Origin: Candidatus Woesearchaeota archaeon
Lineage (GTDB): Archaea; Nanobdellota; Nanobdellia; Pacearchaeales; GW2011-AR1
Reading direction: 5' to 3'
DNA: 64,000 nucleotides
Assembly (NCBI GenBank): GCA_964495875.1
Contig: CAZBWB010000001.1
Span: forward strand, 315,122 to 379,121
Shown here piece by piece: positions 13,688 through 15,385 of the stretch. Each line of letters opens with the position of its first letter. Positions within the stretch are counted from its first letter, which is position 1. Made by a program: the position numbers and the translations under genes. The notes below the pieces were generated by a model, which did no database searches, was not told the DNA's origin, and saw only the letters and a program-made list of their open reading frames with translations.

Positions 13688-14172
13688 TTACGCAAAAATA
13701 AAGCCAGATTTTTAGTTTTAAAATTATCGGGAATTTCTCCAAAATAAATTCTCTCGTCAATAGTATAATCAGTAGGAAGCGGATACTGATAATAATCCTG
13801 TCTAACAGAACCTGCAGAAAGTTTTGCTCCCTCTCCTCTAACGTCTAACCAAATACCTCTAATATAATCATCACTATAAAGACCTTTAAAGATTTTTGAA
13901 CTCAGAGGAGCATTGAATTCATTTAAATCACCACTCTCGTTTATTTGCTCAAATACCCTTTCTCCAGAATCATCTTTAGTCAATAAATATGCTGTCAAAG
14001 ATTTTGCAGGAATTAAATCAGAAGAATCCCTTGCTATTGCATCTATCTTAACTCTTCTTTTATTCAACAATGAAACTCCAAGTATAGATAAAACCAAAAG
14101 AGTAATCACTATCAGGGTTGCAACTATCCATGTTATAGTTTCTGGTATCTGTGCTTTTCTATTAATCGGCAT
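13684..14172 (-). CDS. Pilin-like protein
   Basis: N-terminus MPINRKA|QIPETITWIVATLIVITLLVLSILGV. It is translationally coupled on both sides. Confidence 0.5.
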   Translation of the reverse strand: MPINRKAQIPETITWIVATLIVITLLVLSILGVSLLNKRRVKIDAIARDSSDLIPAKSLTAYLLTKDDSGERVFEQINESGDLNEFNAPLSSKIFKGLYSDDYIRGIWLDVRGEGAKLSAGSVRQDYYQYPLPTDYTIDERIYFGEIPDNFKTKNLALFLRK

Positions 14173-15385
14173 TTTTTTCCACCTTCCCTATGATTGATGA
14201 AATTCTGATTACATACTGATTGTCATTTTCGTCTAAGACATAAAAACTTCTGGTAAGTCCGGGAATTGTTTTTTCTTTTTCCTTTAAGCGTATCATAAAC
14301 TCTTCCCATGGAAATGCAGGTCCAGGGTCCTGTTTTCTGCAAGTGTCAACTTCATCGTGTCCTATGATATGCTCCCTGTCAATAGGGATATTATTTCTTG
14401 AAACTATTCCAAAAACTAATTCAACCAAAGCATCTATTTGCTCTTCAGTATATTTTTCCCAAACCCTGACTTGCTCTTCACAAATTCCTGTTTCTTCATT
14501 ACGAAAAACATGTTTTCCTTCAACTCCGACCCCGCAAAAATCTTCATAGTCTGTTTCCCCGCATAACCAGCCATAATTAATAATTTCAATTCCAATAGCC
14601 CTGTCATTTACAGTTGGTCTGCAACAATCGATGTCTTGTTCATAATCATTTGGATTTGGCCTCTCATCTTCTGAATGACATTCTGGTCTGTCACTACCAC
14701 AGCCCACATGTCCTGGATTTTTATTTTCCCACTGTCCTGTAACTTCTAAAACATCTTTTTCTACACATTCACTAACAAGTCCACCAAACCTGCATTCTCC
14801 GACTTTTCCGTCTTTATCGAGTATGTACTGAACTCCCCACTTTTTATTCTTTAATGAATTAAAGACATTTTGAATATTTCCTCCTCCTGCAGTATAATGG
14901 ATAATGACATATTCTTTGTTAGTTTTCTTTTCAGATACCGAACTGCCTGTTATCTGCCACATAGTTTTCAAATTCTCATTTCCTTCAGCAACATCAAAAA
15001 TTTTATCTCCAAGACCATCCAGGGTATTTTCATCAAATTCATAAATACCCGCTTCCAGATAATACTGTTCTTGTTTTTTCCAGTCATAAATATCTTCAAC
15101 ATTAAAATTTAGATTGCATTCTTCTAAAAAATTCTCCTCAAAACCTTCGTCTAAAACCCCTTGCTTAAGATAACCTCCTTGAGCCAAGCAATCAGCGATA
15201 TGATTTATTAAAACATTTGCTTCTATTTCCCTCACATTTTTTGGCTGTCCGTAAAAAATAATAGCCATATAAACAACTGCACCAGCCACTATGAACAAGA
15301 TGGCAAACCAGTAAACTGAAATTATTTTATCTCCCTTTTTATTCAAACGCGTCTTTATCTTAATCATTGTATTCATTTTTTTCAT
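14162..15385 (-). CDS. Pilin-like N-terminal anchor fused to an N-acetylmuramoyl-L-alanine amidase (Amidase_2/PGRP fold)
   Basis: N-terminus RLNKKG|DKIISVYWFAILFIVAGAVVYMAII. Amidase_2 hallmarks lie at residues ~157-365 (about 14291-14917):
- YVIIHYTAGG (Zn His)
- GVQYILDKDGKV
- NDRAIGIEIINYG
- YTEEQIDALVELV ... IIGHDEVDTCRKQDPGPAFPWEEF (Zn His and Asp)

A Cys-rich insert (residues ~195-300) splits the fold. Confidence 0.75.
   Translation of the reverse strand: MKKMNTMIKIKTRLNKKGDKIISVYWFAILFIVAGAVVYMAIIFYGQPKNVREIEANVLINHIADCLAQGGYLKQGVLDEGFEENFLEECNLNFNVEDIYDWKKQEQYYLEAGIYEFDENTLDGLGDKIFDVAEGNENLKTMWQITGSSVSEKKTNKEYVIIHYTAGGGNIQNVFNSLKNKKWGVQYILDKDGKVGECRFGGLVSECVEKDVLEVTGQWENKNPGHVGCGSDRPECHSEDERPNPNDYEQDIDCCRPTVNDRAIGIEIINYGWLCGETDYEDFCGVGVEGKHVFRNEETGICEEQVRVWEKYTEEQIDALVELVFGIVSRNNIPIDREHIIGHDEVDTCRKQDPGPAFPWEEFMIRLKEKEKTIPGLTRSFYVLDENDNQYVIRISSIIGKVEKNAD

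Follow-up and report, generated by a model that had tools for sequence, protein, structure and literature searches.

The minor pseudopilin GspK has a domain inserted in its sheet, as set out in a study of modular pilins (PMC8179133), the text and three supplementary files of which mention no murein hydrolase module; nor is there any amidase or lysozyme entry in these files. Among the archaea, large extracellular SLT/GH23 proteins of Pacearchaeota and Woesearchaeota prompted the hypothesis of a bacterial host (PMC8204110, PMC9723730). The words "amidase" and "pili" occur in neither of these two papers, and "hydrolase" never occurs in a census of archaeal type IV pili (PMC4858521). We report here on a gene at positions 14162-15385 of a 64,000-nucleotide stretch of contig CAZBWB010000001.1 from a Candidatus Woesearchaeota archaeon, which is called the window throughout. 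Judged from its sequence and those of its relatives, the gene encodes an amidase domain that is inserted in a conserved operon subunit of about 167 residues ("family X"), the common form of which has no enzyme. We consider it probable, if by no wide measure, that the product is a modular subunit of a type-IV-filament-like machine of Pacearchaeota/Woesearchaeota (GTDB Nanoarchaeota), which presents a murein amidase to bacterial walls. In the literature on the pili and murein enzymes of DPANN, Pacearchaeota and Woesearchaeota, we found no description of hydrolase-bearing filament subunits, in agreement with the original prediction, made from the DNA letters, which knew of no pilin fusion.

An amidase within a small carrier

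The 407-residue open reading frame (ORF) starts with ATG and occupies exactly 14162-15385, as first proposed, and lies on the minus strand; a plus-strand reading was ruled out because that frame is riddled with stops. Its parts are as follows.

14162..15385, minus strand: the entire gene, encoding a family-X carrier with an Amidase_2 insert, 407 residues (ORF list and homologues)
15332..15385, minus strand: leader, residues 1-18, ending N-K-K-G, a putative class III signal with its cleavage site after G18 (family-X alignment)
15248..15325, minus strand: hydrophobic N-terminal alpha-helix, residues 21-46 (IISVYWFAILFIVAGAVVYMAIIFYG), modelled by AlphaFold2 (AF2) as helix 19-46
14918..15247, minus strand: N-terminal part of the carrier, residues 47-156, with helix 51-67, conserved C66/C90, strands 108-117 and 125-135, and "GNxNLK"
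14270..14917, minus strand: inserted Amidase_2 domain, residues 157-372, an AmiD/AmpDh2-like Zn amidase (Pfam, PDB profile, Foldseek and residue conservation)
14897-14899, 14585-14587, 14357-14359, 14333-14335 and 14327-14329, minus strand: H163, E267, H343, K351 and D353, respectively
14462..14806, minus strand: region of family-specific Cys-rich insertions, residues 194-216, 229-256 and 273-308 (alignments of homologues and AmpDh2)
14165..14269, minus strand: C-terminal part of the carrier, residues 373-407, beta-hairpin "RSFYVLDENDNQYVIRISSIIGKVEKN" (AF2 and homology)

The profile search against Pfam gives a clear match to Amidase_2 (PF01510), the family named at the outset, over residues 158-356, which correspond to positions 6-131 of the 131 in the profile (63.9 bits, the Pfam cut-off being 26 bits; E=2.5e-17). 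About 50 full-length homologues with 35-50% identity are present in metagenome-assembled genomes (MAGs) of Nanoarchaeota, Nanoarchaeia and Pacearchaeota. When 33 of the full-length homologues are aligned, H163, E267 (within IGIE), H343 and D353 prove invariant and K351 is kept in at least 90%. Counts over 43 distinct amidase modules are 43 for E267 and 40 for K351, while each of the three putative Zn ligands that had been picked out from the sequence (His163, His343 and Asp353) is conserved in 42. This conservation across homologues and modules implies that the residues and motifs first named are real and under selection. Searching PDB sequences with the family profile retrieves AmpDh2 (4bj4, E=1.3e-21), then AmiD (2bh7), AmpDh3 (4bxd), AmpD (1j3g) and T7 lysozyme. 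The same amidases are also matched in a single-sequence search of PDB sequences, the nearest solved relatives being AmpDh2, AmiD and AmpDh3. These three enzymes act on polymeric murein. The "IIHYT" stretch lines up with "LHYTS" of AmpDh2, and E267 and K351 join the Zn ligands in the catalytic set.

Structure prediction points the same way. The AF2 model of the 407-residue protein has a predicted local distance difference test (pLDDT) value of 77, and Foldseek comparison of this full model with the PDB yields amidase and PGRP matches only (PGRP-LB 7nsx, camel PGRP 2r2k and the LysGH15 amidase-2 domain 4ols), with no pilin among them. The PGRP matches have a probability of 0.99 and target template-modelling (TM) scores of 0.49-0.52, with E-values (7e-3) that are weak because of the Cys-rich inserts and the carrier. 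The model thus predicts a T7-lysozyme/PGRP fold in this protein which, on the strength of its sequence, we regard as an extracytoplasmic Amidase_2 member with a complete catalytic set and a presumed hydrolytic activity and substrate. A single Cys-rich insert of some 100 residues, as described in the original prediction, is not what the alignments reveal; there are instead two to three separate insertions, each missing from some homologues and none present in the aligned AmpDh2. C229, C236, C254 and C255 are kept in all 43 of the 43 modules having these inserts, and AF2 models the insertion stretches at low confidence (pLDDT 57-72).

When residues 1-157 were used as query in an exhaustive HMMER search of 50% cluster representatives, 593 relatives were found, mostly of 160-185 residues and most of them without an enzyme. 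A word-indexed search likewise found "hypothetical proteins" of about 167 residues from Nanoarchaeota and Pacearchaeota, with up to 64% identity and without a Pfam domain. Alignment of the bare, amidase-bearing and SLT-bearing forms places the amidase exactly where the bare proteins have a short C-x(8-10)-C loop, with "GNxNLK" before it and "RxFYxLD" after it; in other family members an SLT module enters elsewhere, directly past the second helix. Two partial matches (P0052 and P0053) contain no amidase; what they have in common with the query is residues 15-85, residues 87-155 and, at the C-terminus, the strand "FYxxD..Y.I.I....K.EKN". The AF2 model of a bare family-X protein (pLDDT 84.7; predicted TM score 0.71) has the same topology as the amidase-bearing one: behind the hydrophobic N-terminal helix and a further helix come two strands, then the insertion point, then the last two strands. 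In the 407-residue protein these last strands (378-384 and 390-399) form the C-terminal hairpin of residues 378-399 at pLDDT 88-94, and residues 373-407 are homologous to the C-termini of bare family-X proteins and of SLT-bearing variants. Taken together, the alignment and the models indicate that the gene specifies a small carrier with an enzyme in a sheet loop. As a result, the idea of a pilin-like N-terminus fused to an amidase holds for the N-terminal pattern and fails for the simple N-terminal fusion, since the enzyme is inserted into the carrier and the C-terminal hairpin follows it.

The N-terminus reads "NKKG/DKIISVYWFAILFIVAGAVVYMA", the slash standing at the putative cleavage site. 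The true start of the protein may be M4 or M7, and the protein P0001 begins at M4. Within family X the Gly/Ala column is kept in 78 of 84 sequences, with Lys or Arg preceding it in 64 of 84, and S23, Y25, W26 and F27 are invariant in the alignment.

The operon and its hydrolase modules

Family X is one of seven small subunit families encoded on the minus strand between an ATPase and a prepilin peptidase. The other genes of the operon in the window are these, in order of transcription.

21192..23480, minus strand: T2SSE-type secretion/assembly ATPase, 762 residues (Pfam T2SSE, E=1.2e-13)
18598..20763, minus strand: polytopic membrane protein of 721 residues, presumed platform, present at all loci
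17605-18051, minus strand: family V small subunit, 148 residues, N-terminal pattern as in the other families
16742-17500, minus strand: family U small subunit, 252 residues, N-terminal pattern as in the other families
15360..15776, minus strand: family W small subunit, 138 residues, "KKG/TILIGNVIF...", with a 26-nucleotide overlap with the start of the amidase gene
13684..14172, minus strand: family Y small subunit, 162 residues, "RKA/QIPETITWIVA...", which bears the amidase in other genomes
13370..13687, minus strand: family Z small subunit, 105 residues, "KNKG/GDIPITILVIG...", which bears SLT in other genomes
12947..13336, minus strand: family Q small subunit, 129 residues, "KRG/QGLSTNAIILIILG..." (operon profiles and alignment)
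11907..12752, minus strand: A24-family prepilin/preflagellin peptidase, 281 residues, with D22 and an AGGD motif (Pfam Peptidase_A24, E=8e-13)

We surveyed 80 loci by running hidden Markov models (HMMs) built from the window and two other loci (L001 and L003) on every ORF. The order of T2SSE ATPase, 721-residue membrane protein, V, U, W, X, Y, Z, Q and A24 peptidase is nearly invariant in about 80 species-level genomes, and it is also seen around the homologue P0042 (36% identity) and the SLT-bearing P0053. When species representatives were scanned with the alignment of bare carriers, 147 genomes proved to have the carrier, nearly all labelled Pacearchaeota, Woesearchaeota or Nanoarchaeota. 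The amidase gene overlaps its upstream neighbour by 26 nucleotides and its downstream neighbour by 11, as would fit the coupling to pilin-like genes on both sides that had been noted. The NCBIfam FlaK model also matches the peptidase, with E=7.6e-12, a score below its cut-off. In family-wise alignments all seven small families have a Gly/Ala column (93-100%) after Lys or Arg (76-97%), directly before a hydrophobic helix of at least 20 residues, and they are otherwise unrelated in sequence. A [KR]-[GA] site in seven families beside an A24 peptidase is as expected of a common class III signal-peptide cleavage site. The N-terminus of family Q is the most pilin-like of the set, making this protein a candidate major subunit.

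The 721-residue membrane protein has a mean column identity of 76% across 22 species. It has no Pfam family and no PDB sequence match, and a T2SSF assignment, obtained for only 1 of the 22 members at E=0.09, is not supported. Its place in the locus is the one expected of a platform, and it could be either a platform protein that has diverged very far or a component of a new kind. Three operon-bearing contigs (L022, L045 and L050) were deposited as Bacillota, Patescibacteria or "bacterium" MAGs, and one amidase homologue (P0046) is labelled Patescibacteria. Bacterial labels on complete archaeal-type operons probably reflect mis-binning.

Murein hydrolase modules are found on four of the small subunit families.

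Amidase_2 in X: the window, L001 (identical with L031), L006, L032 and L035 (split into two ORFs)
Amidase_2 on Y: L005/P0049 and L061
SLT in X: L003/P0053, P0052 and P0250
SLT on an extra Q-like copy: L045
SLT on Z: L061

The Pfam scores of the modules on Y are 71.8 bits (L061) and 67.5 bits (P0049, L005) for Amidase_2, and those on Z and Q are 38.8-57.4 bits for SLT, the cut-off of which is 21.3 bits. Within family X, P0053 (L003) scores exactly that cut-off, 21.3 bits, and P0052 has no Pfam match; the SLT calls for P0052 and P0250 rest on an HMM built here together with E-S, G-[LI]-M-Q and YNGWG motifs. One Cys pattern is common to the SLT modules, whether they are borne on X, Z or Q. Moreover, the amidase module of the window is 51-53% identical to the Y-borne modules as against at most 50% to the other X-borne ones, and X- and Y-borne modules intermix in a neighbour-joining tree that, having no support values, is a hint only. 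This intermixing suggests module exchange between neighbouring genes. Because amidase and SLT modules recur on X, Y, Z and Q-like copies, the small subunits appear to act as interchangeable hydrolase carriers.

Several observations accompany this survey. At L061:2369-4268 (plus strand) an Amidase_2 on Y (329 residues) and an SLT on the adjoining Z (302 residues) make up a full murein-dismantling pair. The amidase-bearing X gene at L035:8159-9420 (plus strand) is in two overlapping ORFs of 275 and 186 residues, and either a frameshift or pseudogene or an assembly error would account for this. A separate large protein of at least 649 residues, with SLT and a faint LysM match, is encoded just upstream of the operon ATPase at L003:1-772 (minus strand). 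A family-X protein of 367 residues (P0131) has an insert of about 190 residues at exactly the amidase site ("...TTCNLWARDFL...EPRHEAIV..."), for which no Pfam or PDB match was found. This insert could be a third type of cargo; that it is a Cys/His peptidase is only a guess.

Elsewhere, the window has about 32% G+C and encodes archaeal proteins such as RadA (8581-9555), DP2, which is the large subunit of PolD (58974-62423), and a DHH protein that is GAN/Cdc45-like. Neither Rfam nor a tRNA scan found anything in the 64,000 nucleotides. Inside the 965-nucleotide gap between W and U, at 15873-16745 (plus strand), is an ORF of 290 residues that matches no Pfam family and begins with a lipobox-like N-terminus ("LLFPGC"). 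It looks like an insertion into the operon, since W and U adjoin in L001 and L003. Directly upstream of the ATPase and on the same strand is a block of secreted or anchored proteins (23553-33461, minus strand), which does not adjoin the ATPase in L001 or L003. It holds a Peptidase_C25 (gingipain-like) protein of 941 residues, a subtilase (S8) of 1061 residues with NosD repeats, and a 184-residue ORF (27660-28214) with the N-terminus "MKRGMNPVIGSVLLVMLVMAVG", which we take to resemble archaeal pilin N-termini. Further away, a protein of 3169 residues (41095-50604, minus strand) combines Laminin_G_3 (concanavalin-like lectin) and bacterial Ig-like domains with an N-terminal membrane anchor; it is of the giant surface-protein kind typical of DPANN archaea, and a possible adhesin. 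In addition, a 770-residue ORF at 3854-6166 (minus strand) contains an intein carrying a LAGLIDADG homing endonuclease.

Subunit of a filament, anchor or scavenger

If the gene does encode a filament subunit, the precursor would enter the membrane via its hydrophobic helix and, as the motif and the operon suggest, the A24 peptidase would cut after G18. The ATPase and the membrane platform would then build the protein in as a low-abundance, probably tip-located subunit, by analogy with modular and minor pilins such as GspK. At filament contact the exposed amidase would presumably strip stem peptides from the N-acetylmuramic acid (MurNAc) of bacterial murein, and local weakening of the wall would permit attachment or penetration and also yield freed peptides. 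The chemistry of the enzyme points to a bacterial wall as the target, and the SLT modules at like operon positions strengthen this inference. Amidase_2 enzymes cut the MurNAc-lactyl-L-Ala amide, and SLT enzymes need the C6-OH of MurNAc and a beta-1,4 bond. Pseudomurein has no MurNAc lactyl-L-Ala bond and no C6-OH for 1,6-anhydro formation, and therefore neither chemistry suits it; DPANN archaea are not known to make murein. A wider reading, which we advance tentatively and at somewhat less than an even chance, is that of a lineage-wide type-4-filament machine with subunits that are interchangeable carriers of hydrolases (Amidase_2, SLT and at least one further module), forming a pilus-borne wall-breaching apparatus directed against living bacteria. 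The repeated, independent grafting onto four families is difficult to account for if the filament and the hydrolysis of walls do not operate in concert.

The pilin identity of family X is only partly established, the evidence being the N-terminal motif and the operon context. A short basic leader ending in Gly or Ala with a hydrophobic helix next, as in archaeal class III signal proteins, is present; the gene is encoded with a T2SSE ATPase and an A24 prepilin peptidase, as type IV pilins are, in about 80 genomes; and a small carrier with a grafted functional module (about 167 residues bare, 407 here) is the arrangement of a modular pilin. A topology of a helix plus four strands, and the precedent of GspK, likewise speak for a pilin. 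The bacterial N-methylation motif (IPR012902) is absent, G18 being followed by DKIIS with no Phe or Met at +1 and no Glu at +5. The likeness of the N-terminus to the neighbouring prepilins, which had been remarked upon, is thus upheld by the common [KR]-[GA] pattern and by the A24 and T2SSE genes of the operon, but true pilin identity is not, no pilin family or fold having been matched.

A number of results weigh against a filament that presents hydrolases to a host. None of the operon's small proteins, X included, matches a Pfam pilin family, even at E<=10, and NCBIfam has no such family for X or its neighbours. The bare-carrier model gives no significant Foldseek match in the PDB and no pilin among its matches, of which the top ones are ribosomal and fluorescent proteins (E>=0.047), and the carrier profile finds nothing among PDB sequences. 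The 721-residue membrane protein is not recognisable as T2SSF/FlaJ. Right after the putative cleavage site comes a charged D-K, unusual among archaeal class III signals of the FlaFind type, and in archaea such helices are also found at the N-termini of accessory proteins that are not cleaved. We know of no host for these archaea. Finally, hydrolase grafts are confined to about 10 of the 80 species loci, a figure that is rough because the ranking of the scan disfavours interrupted X genes, and it follows that the core function of the machine does not require a hydrolase.

The purpose of the enzyme could be nutrition instead of attack. In this scavenging explanation, which we think possible but on the unlikely side, the amidase, together with SLT elsewhere, dismantles free murein or dead walls to feed an auxotrophic archaeon, and the filament is functionalised in the manner of a bindosome. 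The explanation concerns purpose and fits the architecture of the filament-subunit reading; indeed, host attachment or penetration and the scavenging of wall peptides could be mutually compatible. [quoted passage not shown] The amidase and SLT of L061 would, moreover, disassemble murein fully between them. The conserved operon, however, contains no ABC transporter or muropeptide-uptake gene, the grafts are confined to filament-operon subunits, and a diffusible secreted enzyme would do as well as a tethered one.

Somewhat unlikely, in our judgement, is that the protein is a membrane-anchored ectoenzyme or platform accessory with an uncleaved signal anchor (compare FlaF/FlaG of the archaellum and bacterial bitopic proteins of the PilN/PilO/GspM type). 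In that case the place of family X would be the base of the machine, from which its amidase would reach only walls pressed on the archaeal membrane. Such an anchor is a live rival because matches to pilin families and folds are absent and the Gly is followed by the charged D-K. Helices with a four-stranded sheet, as in the carrier, are a generic fold, and a single-sequence search with the carrier part of P0131 matched PDB entry 4ec6 (E=0.016), presumably a VirB8-like/NTF2-like transfer protein. That match was nevertheless dropped, as neither the family profile nor Foldseek reproduces it. An uncleaved anchor would also have to accommodate the strictly conserved [KR]-[GA] at equal distance from the helix in seven unrelated families beside an A24 gene, and the occurrence of grafts on family Q as well, which has the most canonical pilin-type signal ("KRG/QGLS").

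A PGRP-like adhesin that recognises murein and binds walls without cutting them is improbable. The Amidase_2 fold is a pure receptor in many animal PGRPs, and PGRPs are the top Foldseek matches of the full model. Non-catalytic PGRPs typically lose a Zn ligand, however, whereas each Zn ligand, like the Lys and the catalytic Glu, is kept in 40-43 of 43 modules here, and the alternative cargo, SLT, has an intact catalytic E-S motif. Very improbable indeed is a self-directed, space-making autolysin like VirB1, FlgJ or EtgA that opens the producer's own wall or the pseudomurein of an archaeal host: an SLT or amidase of their own is common in the secretion and pilus operons of bacteria, and the operon position is similar, but the producer here is an archaeon of a group, DPANN, not known to make murein, about 70 of the 80 loci are without any hydrolase, and pseudomurein suits neither chemistry.

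Comparison with known systems

Pacearchaeota and Woesearchaeota are among the most abundant uncultured archaea, and the idea that some of them have bacterial hosts rests mainly on large SLT-domain proteins. At the present locus murein-degrading enzymes are physically part of a surface-filament operon that is conserved, an amidase joins the enzymes known from these lineages, and the host question becomes directly testable. A wall-breaching filament, if true, would be a molecular mechanism for episymbiosis or predation of an archaeon on a bacterium, by which these cells would attach to, pierce or feed on bacteria. It would also extend the modular-pilin principle to archaea and to lytic enzymes.

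AmiD, AmpDh2 and AmpDh3 (PDB 2bh7, 4bj4 and 4bxd) share the catalytic domain, the His-His-Asp Zn site, the Glu and the Lys with the protein described here, and are lipoproteins or soluble, with PG_binding_1 or SH3 domains. Unlike these enzymes, the domain encoded at 14162-15385 has Cys-rich insertions and sits inside a small membrane-anchored carrier of an archaeal filament operon. A murein hydrolase is likewise fixed at the distal end of a filament or needle in T4 gp5 lysozyme, T7 gp16 SLT and VgrG-3 of Vibrio cholerae, but those machines (contractile tails and the type VI secretion system) are unrelated and their carriers are not homologous to family X.

Modular pilins (PilB/PilC of Streptococcus sanguinis and GspK; PMC8179133) combine a small pilin-type carrier with a displayed module as proposed here, and the insertion-in-sheet topology of GspK matches the amidase insertion of family X. 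The bacterial proteins have the IPR012902 N-methylation motif, which is absent from family X, and mostly adhesive modules; the family-X carrier, in contrast to them, is not recognisably a pilin by fold search. The bindosome or class III signal binding proteins of Saccharolobus (PMC3047682; 10.64898/2026.04.22.720090) have a class III-type N-terminus and a globular domain and have been proposed to be filament-mounted, as we propose for family X. They are, however, solute-binding proteins encoded beside ABC transporters, with the domain as a C-terminal fusion, whereas the lytic cargo here is inserted within an operon subunit and swapped among four subunit families. The large SLT proteins (PMC8204110, PMC9723730) have the lineages, the presumed murein target and the hypothesis of episymbiosis or predation in common with this locus, but they reach about 3000 residues and are not tied to pili; here the modules are small, lie within filament-operon subunits and include an amidase. 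The enzyme itself is thus a known member of Amidase_2, and what seems to be new is the recurrent grafting of murein hydrolases onto the subunits of an archaeal filament operon.

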